In this document: piece by piece, positions 7,304 to 56,300 of the stretch
How positions within the stretch are numbered: position 1 is the first letter of the stretch
Layout of the letters: the number at the start of each line of letters is the position of its first letter
NCBI GenBank assembly: GCA_000004695.1
Contig: CM000153.2
Location: 2,720,001-2,784,000, forward strand
Reading direction: 5' to 3'
Length of the DNA: 64,000 bases
Source: Dictyostelium discoideum
Taxonomy: Eukaryota
The notes under the pieces: generated by a model
Seen by the model: only the letters and a program-made list of their open reading frames with translations
Told to the model about the DNA's origin: nothing
The model's database searches: none
Translations under genes and position numbers: made by a program

Positions 7304-7473
7304 GTAGAATAATTTGATTTAATTTAAATTATTATTCCTTTTTTTATTTTTTTTATTTTTTTTCTTTTTTTTCTATTTTCACTAACAAAATATAAATTTA
7401 TAGATTTATAACAAGATGTAATTCAACATTATATTTATTTAATATTTATTATTGTTTTTCAAATAAAAAGATA

Positions 7474-7854
7474 ATGATTCTTCCAAAGAAGCAATTAAAT
7501 AATAACTATTATAGTAGTGATAACTATAGTAATTACCAACAACAACCACAACAACAACCACAACAACAACAACAATATAATACGGGATATAATCAACATC
7601 AATATACTGATGAAAATGAATATAACCACAGAGGAAATCGATTGGTTTCAAACCCATCTTCAACCATTCAAAGAAATAAAAAATTTGATACAAATAATAA
7701 TTATAATTTTAATAATAATAATTACAATTATAATAGCAATTTCAATAATAATAATAACAATAACAATATTAATAATAATAATAATAATACCAATAATAGT
7801 AACATTAATATTATTAGTAATAATAATAATAATATCAATAATAATAATAATATT

Positions 7855-8154: not shown

Positions 8155-8381
8155 TTAATGTTTATTTGGATTTTTTTTATATACTGTACCAAATATACCT
8201 TTAATTTGATCAGAACTAACAGGCATGGTTTGATTATAACAATCACTTGTAATATCTTGAAAATGTTCATACTTTTCAATGAAAACTTCTTCCAATCTTT
8301 CCCAAATAACAAGTATCAATTGTGAATCTTTTGTAATATTCTTTTGAACATTTCCTAATGCTTTCAATAAACCTTTTTCAA

Positions 8382-8421
<40 letters not shown>

Positions 8422-11002
8422 CAAAAACATGAAATAAAAATAAAATAAAAGAAAATTAGAAAATAATAATTAATAATTATTCAAAATTAATATAATACAA
8501 ACATTTTCAGTTTTAAACTTTTCAACAATTTTTTTAAATTGTTGTTTTGAATGAGATTGTTGGAATTGAATATCAGAAGGTGGTAAAGTTAATAATAGTT
8601 CATCCATTTTTGTGTAGTATTCAATTAATGGTTTGAATTTGAGATCAATTAAAAAGTTTACATAGATTTCCAAATTTTCTTTAAAAATTGATTGAGAGGT
8701 ATCTTTATGTTGAGTTAGACAATTGATATTAAGTTCTTGTAATTTCAAATAAAAGAAATAATGATTCTCAAGTTTTGAAATGAATTTGTATTTTTTATCC
8801 TCTGGTAATTTCTCTACCAAACCATCCAACCAATTAAATAGCTCTAATATGATCTTCTTATAGGATGATTCAATTAAAAGAGTGCTTGAACCAGTGTCTG
8901 ATTCAGATTTATACTTTTGTAATTCTTTAACAAAGATATGAAAATTTCTAAAATGTGGTAAAACACCACATCTCTTTAAAGAGGTTTGAGTTGACTTAAT
9001 TGCATCAACTTGAACTTCTAAAAATTTGTTGAATAAAGTTTTTATACTTTTTTGTACCTCTGCCAAAATCTTTACAAAATATGAAGAATGATGAGAATCT
9101 TTACGTGAATGAGCGTCAATATATAACTCTGTTTCAAGTAACATTGTTAAAAGATAGAATGGATTAACTTGATCAGCTTTTTCAACCATATTTATTAATT
9201 CTGGTACAACTCCATTAAACATTGCACTTAATATTAAATCCAATGGTGCATCTGGTGATTCTTTAGGTGGTGGTGGTGGTGGTGGTGGTGGTGATGATTC
9301 TTCTGTTGATGATAATGAGCCATTGACTGCATTATTTGGAGATTTTGGACTATTTGAATCAATTGGTTTATCATTATCCAATGAAGGTGATGATGATGAA
9401 TCTGGATCTTTTTTTTTTTTATCTTTTTTATCTTTTTTATCTTTTTTATCTTTTTTATCTTTTTTACTTGATTTTTTATCTTTTCTATCCTTACCATCTT
9501 TATTACTACCACTACCACCACCACTACTATTTGAATGATGATTACGTTGACCAGCTAGTCTTGGTGGGTCTTGATATAAAAAGAAATCCATTACAAAATT
9601 TTGTTTTGTCATTATATAAATTTCTAAACAAGATAATGCATATTTAAATAATCTATTGATTTTACGTTTTTTAATACCATCTTTGCCACTACTACTACTA
9701 CTACTACTACTACTATTTTTAGATGGTGTACTTGTTGATGTATTGTTATTTAAACTATCAATTGATTTCTTTGATGAAGATGAAGAAGAAAAGAAATCAT
9801 TTTGATCCTTTGATTCTTTTTCTAATGACTGTTGAATAGTTGAAAAGAAAAGTTTAATATCACTTTCATAAATTCGACGAAATGCTTTAATATAAGAAAC
9901 AATCAATGGGATTAACTTTTCATGATCCATCTCTTTCAACCAATTAACCAATGGTTTAAATTTTCTTAAAAGGTCATAGTATTCCAAGTAATCTGGAAAC
10001 TTTTCTTCACCGGGTGTTTGAGATGTTGTTGTGATGACATGTTTACCAATTTCCTTATCAGTGGTTTTAAATATATTTTCAACCAATGCTGCGACCTTTC
10101 TTGCAAATGAGATTTTATAAGTTTCAAATACCTTTCTTTGATCTTTAACAGCCATCATATTATCCATACCACTCTTTAATTTGGTTGTTAATGCACGTTT
10201 TAAATCTTCAGCTGCTTCAATTGCCATCTTTAATCCCTTGGTATCGTTAAATTGTGGTGCTGTTAGTGTGGAAATTGTGTTGTCTGATAAAGTCATTAAC
10301 CCAATTAAATTATTCAATTCAGAGTATAATAACTTTTGATTTCTTGATACAATCTCCATCTTATTATTCTTTCCTTCAATATGTTCAATATATTTCTTCA
10401 TATCTTGTAATTGTTTATTATAATACTCAATCCATGCCGTCACACCTGTTAAATGTGTACCATCTTTATCACCTAATTGACTTATAACTTCATTAACTCC
10501 AACACCTGAATCTAAAACACCAACAATCATTTCCTTTAAAAAAAAAAAAAAAAAAAAAAAAAATTATTAATTATTAATTATTATAAAATAAAAATTTATT
10601 TTATTATATAATTTAACATACAGTTTCTAAAGTTGATAACGTTTTACCTAAACGTTCAGTTAAAATATCAACATCTTTTTCAAATGAGAGATAATTATTA
10701 ATAACATTTTCTAAATCTTCATCACCATCATTATTTCCCAAACTAGTTGCACTACTACTTAGAGTATTGTTTGATGGACCATTGCTTACATTATCATTCG
10801 ATTGTGATAGAAATGATGGGTACTCAAGTATTGGGATATTACTATGATGGTGATTTTCACTATCACTCTCTGAATGTGTGGTTTCTGATGGATCGTATTC
10901 ACTCTCACTATATTGACTATATCTATCACTAAATTGACCGCTATATCTATTATGTTGAATACCCACTCTACTAATACCACCTGAATATCCAAGATGATCC
11001 AT
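8155..11002 (-). CDS. Exocyst-complex-subunit-like protein (approx. 880 aa; possibly Sec3/EXOC1-like). 3-exon model join(11002..10622,10533..8503,8382..8155).
   Basis: Exon 1 (MDHLGY...LSFEKDVDILTERLGKTLSTLET) ends at a GTATGT donor. Exon 2 (E-MIVGVLDSGVGVNEV... with coiled-coil/helical-bundle segments and acidic/Ser/Lys-rich linkers) follows a TTTAAAG acceptor. After KFKTEN a weak GTTTGT donor, a roughly 120-nt intron containing a T-run of about 40 nt and an AAAAAG acceptor lead to a terminal exon IEKGLLKALGNVQKN...KNPNKH* that has no ATG of its own. The exocyst assignment rests on overall architecture and size, not on a checked alignment. Confidence 0.4.
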
Positions 11003-46074: not shown

Positions 46075-46554
46075 ATGTCAGATAACGAAGCTTTAGATGT
46101 CGAAGACTACGCCCAAGCCGGTTCAGGTGCTTCATTAACCTTCCCAATTCAATGTTCAGCATTAAGAAAGAACGGTTTCGTCGTCATTAAAGGTTTCCCA
46201 TGTAAGATTGTTGATATGTCAACTTCCAAAACCGGTAAACACGGTCACGCCAAAGTTAACATCACTGCTATCGATATCTTCACTGGTAAGAAATACGAAG
46301 AAATTTGCCCATCAACTCACAACATTGATGTACCAAATGTCAGCAGAAAGGAATACACCGTTATGGATGTTCAAGATGGTTACTTATCACTCTTGGATGC
46401 TGGTGGTGAAGTCAAAGAAGATCTTGCCCTCCCAGAAGATGATATTGGTAAAGAAATTACCCAAATGTTAAAAGAAGGTAAAGAGCCATTAGTTTCAGTC
46501 ATCTCTGCTTTAGGTAAAGAAGGTGTCGTCTCTGTTAAAGTCAGCAACAATTAA
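46075..46554 (+). CDS. eif5a: Eukaryotic translation initiation factor 5A (hypusine-containing), 159 aa, single exon
   Basis: Hypusine loop STSKTGKHGHAK. The full length aligns with eIF5A. Codon usage is markedly more G/C-ending (aac, ggt, gtc, ttc) than neighbouring genes, consistent with high expression. Confidence 0.95.
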   Translation: MSDNEALDVEDYAQAGSGASLTFPIQCSALRKNGFVVIKGFPCKIVDMSTSKTGKHGHAKVNITAIDIFTGKKYEEICPSTHNIDVPNVSRKEYTVMDVQDGYLSLLDAGGEVKEDLALPEDDIGKEITQMLKEGKEPLVSVISALGKEGVVSVKVSNN

Positions 46555-46982: not shown

Positions 46983-47625
46983 TATTTATTAATTATTAAT
47001 TATTATTAATTATTATTTTTTTTTACTATTATTATTAATTATTATTTAACTACTAATAATAAATAAATAATAAATAATAAATAATGACAGAAAAAAAAAT
47101 AATAAATAATAATAAATAATAATAAATAATAATAAATAATAAATAATAATAAATAATAATAAATAATAATAAATAATAATAAATAATAATAAATAATAAT
47201 AAATAATAATTATTTGATTAATTTATATATAAATTTGTAGTATTTTAAAATTCAATTGATGAGTATCTAATGAAATTAATAATGGTTTGTCATGTTTGTT
47301 TAATCTCTTAAGTTGAATTATTTTAATTAAACCTGAATGAAACACTATAAACTGAGATCATTTTTAATGTTGTTGTTGGTTGATACTATTATGTTTCTTT
47401 AATCATTGATTTTAAATTCTACTACTGTTATTATTAATTCCTATTTTTGCTGTTGTTATTCAATACAATTAAAACTTTAAAACCTAAAATATACTAAATA
47501 GATCTTTTTTTTTATATTTTTTTTTTAATGACCATCACTAAATTTTTTTAATTTTTTTAAAATTTCTAAAAATAAAAAATTTAAAAAACATCACTGACCA
47601 CAAAAAATTAAAAAAACATCTGACT

Positions 47626-47634
47626 ATCCCATAA
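47626..47634 (+). promoter_or_regulatory. DUSE (Dictyostelium upstream sequence element) ATCCCATAA. A TATA-like TATAAATA lies at 47661..47668.
   Basis: Exact match to the [AT]CCCA[CT]AA consensus, about 60 nt upstream of the start of the GC-rich SRP RNA island. Confidence 0.7.
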
Positions 47635-47689
47635 AAAAATTTCATCAATTAAAAAAATGATATAAATACTGATTCTTACCATTATAAAG

Positions 47690-47975
47690 TATGCAGGATT
47701 GGGTAGCGGCAACCTGTAATCAAGCGATGCATTCGAGGCGAGGACGAGAGCATTGTTAGGACCTTTGGGACAAGCGACGCATACAGTTGATCCACACTAA
47801 CGTTGGTGTCGACATACTATCAGTCTCTAAGGATTGAAAGTAAGTTGATAATGACCAAGTCAAGGTCCAGGCTGGCAACAGAGCAGACAGAGCGAGGCAC
47901 ATCGATGGGTAGCGAGGAAAGTCGACTTAAAGTCGTCCAAAGGAAATAACAATGTAAACTCGAACAAACCTTTTT
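47690..47975 (+). ncRNA. Signal recognition particle RNA (7SL/SRP RNA), approx. 280 nt
   Basis: An island of about 50% GC in AT-rich surroundings. Alu-domain CCUGUAAUC at 47713..47721. S-domain helix-8-like GGUCCAGGCUGGCAACAGAGCAGAC at 47864..47888 (GNRA tetraloop GCAA plus AGAGCAG; compare human AGGUCGGAAACGGAGCAGGUC). Upstream DUSE and TATA box. T14 terminator at 47971..47984. Exact 5'/3' ends not determined. Confidence 0.7.
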
Positions 47976-47984
47976 TTTTTTTTT
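47971..47984 (+). terminator. T14 run; Pol III-type terminator of the SRP RNA gene
   Basis: Immediately follows the GC-rich island (...CGAACAAACC-T14). Confidence 0.6.
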
Positions 47985-48174
47985 AAAACACCGTAGAGCA
48001 ACATACTCTAACCTAGTGAAGATATGATTAAATGAAAAAGAAGAGAACTATTATTATAGAATGATAGTTGAAAAATATGTGAGAATTTATAAAAAAGAGA
48101 GTAGTTTATAAATTAAAGAAATATTATGGAAAGAAAGTTGAAAAATAAAAATAAAATTTATAATATAAGTGGCC

Positions 48175-48205
<31 letters not shown>

Positions 48206-48400
48206 CCGTAGTGAAGATATGATATAAAGAAAATAAAATAATAAAAAAAAGAATAATAATACTTTAAGTACATTTTAAAAATTTTAAAAAAAATTAATTA
48301 AATTAGTATAAGATAGTAAAAAATGCTATAGCTAACCCATCAATCAAAAAAAAAAGAATATACTGTAACCTAACGATGATATATATGACCTTTGTTATTA
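47977..48400 (+). repeat. Three dispersed, degenerate copies of a ~45-nt segment (AAAACRCCGTAG-[AGCAACATACTCTAACCTAG]-TGAAGATATGAT) at about 47985..48030, 48199..48225 and 48355..48392
   Basis: Copy 1 directly follows the SRP RNA T-run. Copy 2 follows a second GGCC-T24 run and lacks the central 20 nt. Copy 3 retains the centre and 3' part (AATATACTGTAACCTAACGATGATATATATGA). Confidence 0.5.
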
Positions 48401-48520
48401 TATTATTTTTACCCATCCCTTTTAAAAAAAAAAAAAAAAAAAATTTTAAGATAATTTTATTTATTTTTATTATTATTATTATATAATGGTATGATTATTT
48501 TTTTTTTTTTTTTTTAAAGT

Positions 48521-48539
48521 TTAATTTTATTGATTAATA

Positions 48540-48573
<34 letters not shown>

Positions 48574-48631
48574 TTTATTATAATTGATTGATAAAAATAA
48601 TATAACAAAAAAAATTGATTAATATATATAC

Positions 48632-48662
<31 letters not shown>

Positions 48663-48705
48663 TTTATTACAATTGATTGATAAAAATAATATAACAAAAA
48701 AAACT
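48521..48705. repeat. Tandem duplication of a ~85-bp unit (ATTGATTAATATATATA(TA)n-T20-ATTAYAATTGATTGATAAAAATAATATAACAAAAAAA) x2
   Basis: Two near-identical copies are read directly from the sequence at 48521..48608 and 48609..48700. Confidence 0.7.
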
Positions 48706-48794
48706 TTGAAAATTGCTTGTTGATTTTAATGTGACAATTTTATTTGATAGATAATAATTAAATAAAATAAAAAAAAAAAAAAAAAAAAATAAAA

Positions 48795-48872
48795 ATTGGA
48801 TTAGACATGTGTTTGGAACTATTTGGATATTTTTAATTAAAGTTCTAAACACATGTTTTGAAATTAAAATTT
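48795..48872. repeat. Inverted repeat/hairpin: ACATGTGTTTGGAAC - 23-nt spacer - GTTCTAAACACATGT (15-bp stem with one G-U wobble)
   Basis: The arms are exact reverse complements except for one G/A position, read directly from the sequence. Confidence 0.6.
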
Positions 48873-49557
48873 AAAGTAAACATTTTTTTATCGGAATTAA
48901 AAAAAAATTAAAATTTTTTTTTTTTTATTTTTTTATTTTTTATTTTATTTTTTTTTTTTATTTTATACTTTTACATTTTTTTAAAAACAAATTTTTTTTT
49001 TTTTTATTTTTTTTATCTTATTATTGTAAATAGAATTAAGAAAATACATAAACTGAAAAATTTTAATAGTCACCCTTCCTCATCCTACTCCTCTATCACT
49101 ACCAGTTATTTATAAAATATAATAGTGAAAAGGATCATAAAGATTTATCAGTAAAATTAAGTGAGTAAAAATATAAATACAAATAAAAAAAAAATAATAA
49201 TAAATAATAATATTAATACAAATATAAATACAAATAAAAAAAAATAAAAAATAAAAAATAAAATATTAATAATATAATTTAATGAGTAAAGAAGAATACT
49301 TTAAACTGTATAGATTTAAATACCATTTGTCCAACACCATTAAATAGTTGAAATTACAAGTATTTTTTAGTTGAAAGGTCATATCTTGGGAGATTTTAAA
49401 ATTGGTGCTTATTTGGGTATGTACATTTATTATTTTTATTATTGTTATTATTATTATTATTTATATTATTATTATTATTATTATTATTATTAAAAATTAC
49501 ATTAAAAGCTAATAATCAATATTTTTTATTTAAAGTTTGCTGTATTGACCCATTAGT

Positions 49558-49945
49558 GGAATTACAGGTAAAGTTACTAATGTTAATGATAGGTAACCTT
49601 TATTTGATTTAAATAGATAATCTTTGTACATATAGTATACAGTTCCTAATCACCTGTAAAAAGCAAGAATATTTTGTTTGGATAGGTGATCGGTATCTGA
49701 ATATTGTATGTACAAATGTATCTATTAAATCAAATCAAGGTAACCTACCATTAGCATTAGTAAACTTTGTGGATATCCAAGTCATCTGAATTGTAGTTTT
49801 GATTTTTTGATATGAAGATAATTATTACCATTATTATTATTATTATCATGGTAATAATTATCTCCATATTACAAAATCAAAAGTACGATTGTCAGATGTC
49901 TTATATATCCACAAGATACAGGCAGATTCTATAAAAAACAGATCA
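49558..49945. mobile_element. MITE-like nested inverted-repeat element. ~73-bp imperfect terminal inverted repeats at 49567..49640 and 49700..49772 flanked by GAATTRYAG direct repeats. A second inverted pair is at 49772..49810 and 49868..49900 around a palindromic (ATT)n core.
   Basis: The reverse complement of the right arm aligns to the left arm at about 85% identity over about 73 nt. The spacer is itself partly palindromic (CCTAATCACCTG / GGATAGGTGATCGG). The motif ATCAAGGTAACCT recurs at 49734 and 49932. Not coding. Confidence 0.45.
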
Positions 49946-50228
49946 AGGTAACCTCTCATCAAATTTTTTTTTTGAAAATTAAACAAGGATTTGTTTATGA
50001 TCGATTTATTTTTGTATGAAATGGTATTTGGAAATGGTGATTCTGTATTATAAAAAACTTGAATGAAAGTCTTCTTTATCTTGTAATTTGGACTTATTAC
50101 AAGTTTGTTATAATACAAAATCTCTACACTTCCAAAAACAAATTGATCATTTTTTTTTTTTTTAATTTTTTTTTATATATCCTCCATTTGTTCAAAATAA
50201 AGAAACAAACACAAAAATGAATGATAAA

Positions 50229-50263
<35 letters not shown>

Positions 50264-51153
50264 GTTTTTTATATCTAAAATCATTTGTGTATAATAACTA
50301 AAGTTATTTATAATTTATAAATTAAAGAATTGTTCATTAACTTGTGGGATACTACATATAATATGTAAAAATGAAAAAGAAAAAAAAAAAAAAAAATGAA
50401 AATTAATCAATAAATATTAAAATTTTTAGGTGTGCCCAAACAACTTGAACCCCAATTGCGGTTAATCTGATATTATTTTTATTGCTCCAACTTTTTTAAT
50501 GGGTTATTGTGTCTCCAAAACAATTATTTTACTTTTGGTGTCCCGGCTGATTTTTTTATTTTATTTTTTAATTTTGTTTTTTTTTAGCATTATTTAAGAG
50601 TTGAGTGATTTTTAAGTTGAATCCATTTAATTTATAAAAAACCAACAACATTTTTACCAAGATCAAAAATTAAACTTTTTTACTATTATCTTATCCCAAA
50701 GGTTATAAAAAAAGAAAAAAATCTTAAAATTAAAAATCTAAATAAATTTTAGCCTAAGATCTAAATCAAGATCTGGCAAATAATTTATTAATATCCTGAA
50801 AAAAAAAAAAAAAAAAAAAAAAAATCCAAAACCTTCAACATAATGGCTTTAAAATTTGAAAAACAAATTTTTATTATTATAATTAAGAATCCGAAAAATA
50901 AAAAACAAAATTAAAAAAAAATACACCTACAAATTTATTATGTATATGTGAAGGTTCCCGATTTATTTTTTATAATTTATTTGAGGAAATAAAAAAGAAA
51001 AAAAAAAAAAAAGTTTTATTATTATTTAGGATATGGCACTTAATCCCACTAACAAGTAAAATCTATGATTAAAAATATATTGTTTTAAAATCACCAACAA
51101 ATAGCGGTAATGAATAGATGATCAGTATTATCAAATAATTATGCATTATTATT

Positions 51154-51208
<55 letters not shown>

Positions 51209-52127
51209 AAAAATGATATATATAAAATAGAATTAATAAAAGTTTTAGTAATAGATTATCAAAATTAAAATTTAAAACTTTTATATGATCCAATTGGTAA
51301 TAGTGATTTTGAATATTTTGGTATCATATTTACAAGTATTAATTATTTAAAGTCAAAATATTACTTTTTTTATCTTTTTTTGAAAAAGAAAATATAAAAA
51401 ATATTAAAAAACAGAACAAATATCTAAATTAATTTTTAAACTTATCATAAAACCCATAGTTATTATATTTTTATTAATAAAAATTTGGAAATGGGAAAAA
51501 AAAATAAAAAAAGTTGGCCAATGGATTTTTTAAAATGAATTGCCTGATAGTGATGATGTCGAGAAGAAGAGTGTTAATTATTTTTTTAGTGTTTTTAGAG
51601 TATTAAATTTTAAAATAAAGTATTATATTTAGTTTTTATAAATTTTTAAATAAATTAAAATAAAAATATCTCTATTTTTAAAATATTACCTCAATACATA
51701 TACTCAAAAAAATACTAATTGAAATAACAAAGATTAAAATGTTTTTTTTTTTTTTTATAAAAACAAATATAAATCAATAAAAATTATCATTAATGAATGA
51801 AAAAAACGATATTATAAAAATAAAATTTGATCAAAAAAATTTATTTACATTACAATTAGAAAATTAAATTTACATTTTTAATATTTTTTAAAGTTGTAAT
51901 GAAATATATTTATAAACAACAGGTTCCTATCAAGATCTAGGAATTCTACACTGTAGAATGAAAATTGAAAATTAAGAGTGAAAATTTAATTGCGAAGATC
52001 TAAATTGTTTAAATTGTTCACCAACACATAGAAAGTTCAATAGATTCACAAATAAACACTACAATGGGACACACTCACATCTAATCAAGATATCAAGTAT
52101 GTTCCAAAAAATAATAAAAAGAATATA

Positions 52128-52212
<85 letters not shown>

Positions 52213-52520
52213 ATAATGATGATTACTTTTTTTTTAAAATTTTTTTTTTTTTTTTTTTTTTTATTTTTTATTTTATCTATTTGTTTTTTTTTTTTGGTGG
52301 ACCAATTTCGCCTTTTTTTTTTTTTTTAAAGTTTTGGAAATATAAAGTGATGTGTATGTGTGTGTTGTGTATTGAATGTATGATTGATTGTAAATACAAA
52401 ATGGACACCAATCTTTTTTTAGGTTCAAAGAATAATACAAAATAATAAAGATTGGATATTTCTATTTTGTTTGAAAATTGTTTGATTTGATGTTTTTTTT
52501 TTTTGATTTCTTTGATTTCT

Positions 52521-52557
<37 letters not shown>

Positions 52558-52560
52558 TGG

Positions 52561-52602
<42 letters not shown>

Positions 52603-52763
52603 TAAAAGCTATTATTTACATTTATAATTAAATATAACATATATTGTAAATTATTGGATGATTTATTATTATTATTATTATTGTTTTATGATTTTAAAAT
52701 TATTTTACTATAATTATGTTTTGAATTAAATTTTAAAATCTAATAGCTAGTATATTTTAGGGT

Positions 52764-54997: not shown

Positions 54998-55512
54998 AGG
55001 GGAACTAAACTTTAGGAATAAGGATGGCTTAAATAAAAAAAAGTCAAATCCCTATACAAATACAACTTTGATTTATATTTATCGATGGATCTAAAAAAAT
55101 TATGATTTTGGGCCCTTTTTTTAAAATTTTTGGATTTTATGGGTATTAATTAATTTATTTTATTTTATTATTAATATTTTTATTTAAATAAAAAAAAAAA
55201 AAAAAAAATTTGAAAAAAATTAAAAAAAAAAAAATTAAAAAAAATTAAAAAAAAAATAATTTTAAAATTTCAAAAAAAAATAAAAAAATTTAAAAAAAAA
55301 AAAAAAAATTTCAAAAAAAAAAAAAATTTTTTACTAAATAAAAAAAAAAATAAAAAAAAATAAAAAAAAATAAAAAAAAAAATAAATATTAACAGCAAAA
55401 AAAGTTTCAGTTAAAAAATTCAAAAATTTTTTTTTTTTTTTACCGTGTGTTTTATTACTTTTTTTTTTTTGAACATTTATTAAAATATGAGTTTAGTTTT
55501 TTTTTTAAAAAA

Positions 55513-55826: not shown

Positions 55827-55889
55827 TATTTTTTTGTTATTTAGTATCAGTTAGAGATTAATCTGAATTGAGTTGTAGTTGATTTTTTT

Positions 55890-56240
55890 TAAATTTCAAC
55901 TATCCGATGTATCTAACTTCATTGATTTTATACGCAGCCAAGTTTTCCCAACCTTTGTCATACTGACTCGACCTTTACATTTTCCGACCTTTCGGCAAGT
56001 TGATGAATTGGTTTCTTTGTCGTTTTTTAGTATGAGCTTAGACTATTTCTGTTACCTGACCATTACATTGTTTGTAATTTCCCCCCTAGAGATTTTCGCG
56101 TACTCAGACCTTCCCATATTATTCTCTCTTTATGATTTTAAAAATTTGTGAGAGATTCCTTTTTTTAATGATTGCCATTTGTTGAATATTACATTGGTTT
56201 CAAACCAATACCAAATAATCAAAATAAAATACCCCATTGA
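55890..56240 (-). ncRNA. Candidate RNase P RNA or RNase MRP RNA gene (minus strand); ends approximate
   Basis: A non-AT-rich island. The minus strand contains GGGAAGGUCUGAG (+ 56103..56115), a 13/13 match to the human RNase P RNA CR-I/P4 segment. It is preceded by a P3-like hairpin UCUCUC-N21-GAGAGA. It is followed by a GARAR-like GAAAA and a GNRA-capped hairpin GCC-GAAA-GGU (+ 55984..55996). A CR-V-like ACAGAAAUAGUCUAAGCUCAUA lies at + 56031..56052. An exact DUSE lies about 55-60 nt upstream of the presumed start. Confidence 0.45.
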
Positions 56241-56292: not shown

Positions 56293-56300
56293 TTATGGGA
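56293..56300 (-). promoter_or_regulatory. DUSE TCCCATAA on the minus strand (the + strand reads TTATGGGA), upstream of the RNase P/MRP-like island
   Basis: Exact [AT]CCCA[CT]AA consensus. An A/T-rich TATA-like sequence lies 25-35 nt downstream on the minus strand. Confidence 0.55.

Follow-up and report, generated by a model that had tools for sequence, protein, structure and literature searches.

The spacer directly downstream of the SRP (7SL) RNA gene of Dictyostelium discoideum holds a short segment that recurs, and the question it raises is whether the repeats mark additional RNA genes, the remains of a second SRP RNA gene or spacer DNA copied in place. An initial annotation of this DNA described three copies of the segment and offered decayed duplications of the SRP RNA 3′ flank (tandem gene-copy remnants), or small RNA genes or pseudogenes with a Class I-like motif, as their source. 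Literature searches found no account of the region downstream of the SRP RNA gene. We combined alignment statistics, RNA family searches and RNA folding across the window (the whole 64,000-nt stretch of DNA analyzed here) with a comparison of syntenic loci in relatives.

Locus and comparative material

The window represents D. discoideum AX4, with an open reading frame at 46075–46554 that is 100% identical to AX4 eIF5A. The SRP RNA gene (47691–47968, plus strand) matched Rfam family RF01570 over the full model length at 320 bits. Its promoter element, the DUSE TCCCATAA (47627–47634, plus strand), is an exact match to WCCCAYAA and lies 56 nt upstream of the RNA start, and a run of 14 T (47971–47984, plus strand) forms its Pol III terminator. 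The spacer behind the gene (48000–49000) contains 13% G+C, and T-runs of ≥10 nt occur at least 267 times in the window, the two strands combined.

Syntenic loci were retrieved via eIF5A orthologues from eight relatives and from D. purpureum (L010). The relatives comprise the D. discoideum-clade strains L001 and L007, D. cf. discoideum (L005 and L006), D. citrinum (L002 and L004), D. dimigraforme (L008) and D. firmibasis (L003). The SRP RNA gene was found downstream of eIF5A in seven of them (L001, L007, L005, L006, L002, L004 and L008), and no SRP RNA lay beside eIF5A in the D. firmibasis or D. purpureum loci. Identities over eIF5A plus SRP RNA and over a FEN1 exon place L001 and L007 as sisters (99.2–99.4%) and AX4 next to them (97.9–98.6%), followed by L005 and L006.

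These loci also differ in their other RNA genes. Downstream of eIF5A in D. firmibasis, tRNA genes (7364–7435, plus strand; 8521–8592, minus strand) replace the SRP RNA gene, and both D. citrinum loci carry two tRNA genes in addition to it (~8800–10850). Between FEN1 and eIF5A, L001 (4509–4717, minus strand) and L007 (4488–4696, minus strand) contain a U3 snoRNA gene (RF00012, 74–82 bits); the AX4 window has no counterpart, and its FEN1–eIF5A spacer is ~1 kb shorter. Elsewhere in the window, a nuclear RNase P RNA gene (55846–56136, minus strand; RF00009, 62.6 bits) has its nearest DUSE TCCCATAA at 56293–56300 (minus strand), which puts the element ~157 nt, and not ~60 nt, ahead of the modelled 5′ end. 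Two further exact DUSE matches, at 50342–50349 and 55137–55144 (both minus strand), have no RNA family assigned downstream. A more complex stretch (~30% G+C) at 49600–50130 lacks open reading frames and contains the 13-nt repeat ATCAAGGTAACCT at 49734 and 49942.

Results

Directly behind the T14 terminator stands the 44-mer AAAACACCGTAGAGCAACATACTCTAACCTAGTGAAGATATGAT (47985–48028), the core of copy 1, which in its long form reaches ~10 nt further (47985–48038, plus strand). About 200 nt downstream, a second T-run (48175–48199, plus strand) is preceded by GTGGCC; it consists of 25 T, one more than initially annotated. Copy 2 (48200–48233, plus strand) follows this GGCC and T25 immediately as a short form with a 24-nt core, AAAACGCCGTAGTGAAGATATGAT (48200–48223), and the same extension of ~10 nt. 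The core of copy 2 is identical to copy 1 at 23/24 positions; a single A>G substitution separates the two, and 20 nt are cleanly missing from copy 2. This gap is bounded by TAG/TAG microhomology, so that AGAGCAACATACTCTAACCT and TAGAGCAACATACTCTAACC are both valid readings of the missing stretch. The likeness continues ~10 nt past the core (22/25 over TAGTGAAGATATGAT and the following 10 nt). All junctions of copy 2 fall within homologous sequence: the T-runs on the left (T14/T25), TAG/TAG at the gap and an A-rich decamer on the right (TAAATGAAAA/ATAAAGAAAA). For the shared 15-mer alone, 6e-4 chance occurrences are expected across the window, and p is ~3e-6 for the adjoining AAAACNCCG; together, these values exclude chance for copies 1 and 2. 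The recurrence of the SRP 3′-flank segment behind a second T-run with a clean 20-nt deletion, as first described, is therefore real.

The duplication is confined to ~60–70 nt, T-run included. A tandem repeat unit of 215 nt was considered and rejected, as shuffled and other AT-rich sequences aligned just as well as the remaining ~140–170 nt per unit. The spacer between copies 1 and 2 (flank 1, 48039–48174, plus strand) is purine-rich and of low complexity, and contains an internal ~70-nt repeat (48052–48077 and 48122–48147, 88%). As a candidate copy of another sequence it yielded low-complexity matches only and no specific source. Behind copy 2 lies flank 2 (48234–48334, plus strand). Further downstream, this spacer also contains two tandem copies of an 89-nt segment (48523–48611 and 48612–48700, 92% identical).

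The segment of copy 1, hereafter the block, was also found in relatives. All four of the closest genomes (L001, L007, L005 and L006) carry a single block after the SRP terminator. It directly abuts the terminator in AX4, L001, L007 and L006, and AX4 adds the second copy behind its second T-run; the proposed duplication of the SRP RNA 3′ flank is borne out by this arrangement. What follows the single block differs among the relatives. The L007 block leads into AX4 flank 1 sequence, and the start and end of flank 1 are common to AX4 and L007 only. The blocks of L001 and L005 lead into AX4 flank 2 sequence (AX4 48175–48335 aligns with L001 7739–7902, E 4e-22). The sequence ATGTTC(TTG)7 in L007 is the probable counterpart of the second T-run of AX4. 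Since different flanks are kept in relatives that are 98–99% identical, repeated rearrangement has affected the region inside this very shallow clade, and the second copy is evolutionarily labile, whichever history produced it.

The AX4 block is 84% identical to that of L001 and 87.5% to that of L007. Neighboring spacer (AX4 48657–48795 vs. L001) is likewise 84% identical, compared with 97.6% for the SRP RNA. Judged by these identities, the block appears to diverge at the rate of the adjoining spacer and far faster than the SRP RNA, a pattern that does not suggest selection.

Other parts of this spacer vary as well. The segment of the 89-nt tandem (48523–48700) is apparently single copy in L001 and L007. 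At 48803–48858, an 18-bp inverted repeat (GACATGTGTTTGGAAC ... GTTCTAAACACATGT) with a ~21-nt spacer would form a stem with G-U pairs as RNA (fold −23.7 kcal/mol, z = −6.2), with Rfam miRNA-model matches at chance level only. The hairpin is conserved in L001 (~8232) and L007 (~8623), where its spacer has the opposite orientation; either that spacer or the whole hairpin was therefore flipped. An element of ~50 nt (ACAAACTTGTAAAATGCT..GGATCAAAAGATNTCACCATGG) is conserved behind the SRP RNA gene in L001 (7974), L007 (8372), L005 (8407) and L006 (7728) and is missing from AX4; in L006 it contains a 12-bp stem (GGTCACACTGGT/ACCAGGTGTGATC). The element may represent a small RNA that has escaped annotation, or else a regulatory hairpin, which AX4 would have lost.

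A third copy had been placed at 48355. The segment concerned lies at 48356–48382 (plus strand), after an A-run, and is a partial, degenerate and apparently older likeness of the block (21/26 vs. 48000–48025). Plain local alignment does not set it apart: its score of 27 compares with chance matches of 27 and 26 elsewhere in the window. Profiles raise it from this background, in that copy 3 is the top non-self match of a profile of block orthologues (E 0.44), and the block is the top non-self match of a profile of copy-3 orthologues (E 0.04). The third copy is thus confirmed in part. We consider copy 3 probably an old, degenerate paralogue of the block, of borderline significance. The rival reading, a chance resemblance in AT-rich DNA with no common origin, is the less likely of the two and still carries considerable weight, given that equal scores exist elsewhere in the window and that the profile E-values are modest. 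Against it, the reciprocal best match was obtained in a search space of 328 kb, copy 3 lies on the same strand as the block and within 400 nt of it, and its orthologues in D. cf. discoideum (L006 7594–7640; L005 8153–8192, E 2e-5) retain the common core (A)ACATAC..TAACC. That copy 3 is kept in D. cf. discoideum could reflect either mere orthology or weak constraint.

The initial annotation also proposed tandem gene-copy remnants. In this reading a second SRP RNA gene arose with its terminator and flank, and its body decayed into what is now flank 1, with gene conversion, for instance, preserving the likeness of T-run and block to copy 1. The sequence just before T25 gives it some footing. In resemblance to the SRP 3′ end, the last 45 nt before T25 surpassed 261 of the 267 controls (6/267 were as good), and BLAST of the same region returned 69.6% over 56 nt (E 0.011), T-run included. 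Relatives also carry extra SRP pieces downstream of the gene, among them a second copy of 141 bits in L006 and 3′-end fragments in D. citrinum. One D. citrinum fragment is 87.8% identical to the AX4 SRP RNA and 76% to its own gene and, being nearer to AX4 than to its own gene, must be old. For AX4, however, no SRP covariance-model match was obtained downstream of 47968, even at E ≤10, and flank 1 as a whole is matched in its SRP score by 125 of 1000 shuffles. Flank 1 measures 136 nt against 278 nt for the gene, and the putative remnant is ~60% identical where the adjacent block is 96% identical, a mismatch in decay that calls for gene conversion or extra assumptions. Flank 1 as a decayed SRP body is not supported, with a local score within that of shuffles and a marginal signal in the terminal 45 nt. 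We regard gene-copy remnants in AX4 as improbable, even if the slight SRP-likeness of those 45 nt (6/267 controls) leaves room for an older and longer duplication, part of the gene included.

Partial duplications around the SRP terminator are present in several relatives. L006 has an inverted, 5′-truncated SRP copy (8361–8597, minus strand; SRP positions 81–283, 90.7%) complete with T-run and block, detected by RF01570 at 8377–8597 (141 bits), and a separate antisense SRP 3′ fragment (7424–7493, minus strand) that abuts the flank of the primary gene. Both D. citrinum loci contain fragments of ~40 nt, made of the SRP 3′ end and T-run, 350–500 nt downstream. In D. dimigraforme, a 54-nt tandem duplication consists of the last 15 nt of the SRP RNA, the T-run and 13 nt of flank. 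Partial duplications at the SRP terminator and 3′ flank, each with a T-run, occur in AX4, L006 (two events), D. citrinum and D. dimigraforme, in direct, inverted or tandem arrangement. We tentatively raise the idea, on balance an unlikely one, that the terminator and 3′ flank of dictyostelid SRP RNA genes are a recurrent hotspot for partial duplications. A long dT tract in a Pol III gene under heavy transcription might stall replication forks or provoke template switching; alternatively, the cause may be reverse-transcriptase activity on SRP transcripts. A control, crude and noisy, revealed no excess over the local-repeat background (14 of 66 GC-rich control tiles had local repeats), and extra SRP copies at E ≤1e-4 against the own gene were detected in L006 only.

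Under a mobile-element origin, a non-LTR retrotransposon such as a TRE would have inserted twice on the minus strand, truncated so severely from its 5′ side that the block and T-run represent its polyadenylated 3′ end. On that strand, the sequence ...CGG(T/C)GTTTT of each copy does run into A14 or A25 in the manner of a poly-A tail; Pol III genes are the targets of TRE elements in D. discoideum (PMC5391098); and ATATAAGTGGCC and ATATATATGACC form a weak possible target-site repeat. However, both TRE types insert beside tRNA genes, TRE5 on the upstream side at ~50 bp and TRE3 on the downstream side at ~100 bp (PMC5391098); the window contains no tRNA gene, and the block is 0 nt from the SRP terminator. 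Orthologues of the block occupy the corresponding position in L001, L007 and L006, and in L006 it was duplicated together with the SRP RNA; the block behaves as the gene's own flank. A block profile run over the window and eight loci (~164 kb) matched SRP-adjacent sites only, with no further copy of the block; a dispersed repeat, which would have refuted the initial annotation, was not encountered in this DNA. No reverse-transcriptase reading frame lies nearby, and 48000–52700 contains no long open reading frames. A metagenome scan with the block consensus, in a collection presumed to be without Dictyostelium DNA, gave one unrelated chance match on a GC-rich contig. We consider a retroelement origin very unlikely.

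Least likely of all, with a probability close to nil, is the reading in which the copies encode, or once encoded, small non-coding RNAs of the Dictyostelium Class I kind. Genes of this class carry a DUSE ([AT]CCCA[CT/AT]AA) located ~60 nt before the transcription start, or combine a DUSE with a TGTG box; their RNAs of ~42–65 nt start with AAG, end with CUGU, usually precede a T-run, and possess a short GTTGA-type stem uniting the 5′ and 3′ ends, with the 11-nt motif CCUUACAGCAA beside the 5′ stem (PMC7919456, PMC3188802). Copy 1 matches this motif at 9/11 positions (CCGTAGAGCAA vs. CCTTACAGCAA; first counted as 8/11), T-runs are close to the copies, and the DUSE-like string ACCCATCAA lies at 48335–48343 (plus strand; previously given as 48337). 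Yet motif matches with ≤3 mismatches are at chance level in the window (91 observed vs. 104 expected), and the motif occurs in copy 1 and is missing from copies 2 and 3, in copy 2 because the 20-nt gap removes it. None of the copies has a DUSE ~60 nt upstream, a position that for copy 1 falls inside the SRP RNA. The string ACCCATCAA breaks the [AT]CCCA[CT]AA consensus, precedes copy 3 by ~12 nt rather than ~60 nt and lacks conservation among relatives; both it and copy 2 are absent in L001 and L007. The only DUSE near the region (47627–47634) belongs to the SRP gene, and 47501–48700 contains no AAATGTG (TGTG) box. Folds of the three copies on both strands were weak and had no terminal stem (MFE 0 to −7.7 kcal/mol; z-scores +0.4 to −2.3), GTTGA and CTGT (CUGU) ends are absent from the copy sequences, and Rfam at E ≤10 returned the SRP RNA and two chance miRNA-model matches on an unrelated hairpin, with none on the copies. 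Motif statistics, the DUSE scan, the folds and Rfam thus reject the Class I reading that the initial annotation had put forward.

Discussion

We interpret the copies as probably neutral local duplications of spacer DNA directly after the D. discoideum SRP RNA gene, and not as genes; from their sequences, they are most likely non-functional. Under this interpretation, a segment comprising the poly-T terminator, the first ~44 nt of the 3′ flank and ~10 nt more would have been copied in direct orientation to a T-run ~200 nt downstream. The inferred route is replication slippage or template switching, or else repair synthesis, with priming on the homopolymer T-run, so that the T14 run would have served both as terminator and as left-hand homology of the duplication. 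Twenty nucleotides would have been skipped at the TAG/TAG microhomology, or lost later, and the copy would have been rejoined in A-rich microhomology. Homopolymer runs, which are very abundant in this AT-rich genome, would provide the homology. Judged from the junctions alone, their homologies most likely point to slippage or template switching, or to homopolymer-primed repair synthesis. Copy 3 would probably stem from an earlier event of the same kind. The direct repeats would then render the region unstable, and related strains would have lost the second copy or never gained it, each retaining a different flank.

Two histories may account for the distribution of the second copy. The ancestor of AX4, L001 and L007 may have had two copies, of which L001 and L007 each lost one by different deletions; the loss in L001 would be consistent with recombination between the repeats. 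Alternatively, the ancestor may have had the order block, flank 1, T-run and flank 2, and only the AX4 lineage copied the block to the second T-run. Both AX4 copies have a G in GAAGATAT where L001, L007 and L006 have T. Its polarity is ambiguous because L005 possibly has G as well, and dating copy 2 by a shared derived G was dropped for this reason.

On a small scale, the locus illustrates cleanly how microhomology-driven copying and deletion cause turnover of AT-rich Dictyostelium spacers, such that strains 98–99% identical in their genes differ by entire spacer blocks. The copies are not new RNA genes, and annotating them as Class I-like RNAs or SRP pseudogenes is unwarranted. For work on Pol III-associated genome instability, the recurrence of partial duplications at the SRP terminator across several species offers a modest lead.

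Comparison with known systems

With Dictyostelium Class I RNA genes, the locus shares the 9/11 motif match of copy 1 and nearby T-runs. It differs in that the copies have neither a DUSE at about −60 nor a TGTG box, terminal stem or conserved ends, in that copies 2 and 3 lack the motif, and in that the copies are not conserved in relatives. TRE3 and TRE5 non-LTR retrotransposons resemble it in having a Pol III gene as neighbor and an A-run at the minus-strand 3′ end; here, however, distance and target type are wrong, and the block is an orthologous flank at a single locus, free of open reading frames and undispersed in the DNA examined. SRP (7SL) RNA pseudogenes and partial gene copies are similar in one respect: the fragments of L006 and D. 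citrinum lie downstream of the gene with their T-run, and AX4 copy 2 likewise stands behind a T-run. The part duplicated in AX4 is, by contrast, flank rather than RNA, and the covariance model detects no SRP sequence there; because flank is included, the AX4 copy would be a DNA-level event and not a retroposed transcript.

The closest likeness is to microhomology-mediated local duplications in AT-rich intergenic DNA. As in those, short direct copies lie a few hundred nucleotides apart, homology marks every junction (T-run, TAG and A-rich stretch), presence varies by lineage, the sequences drift at a neutral rate, and the same spacer holds more tandem repeats. Unlike in those, the donor here includes the Pol III terminator of an essential RNA gene, and several relatives carry independent duplications that likewise span the SRP terminator.
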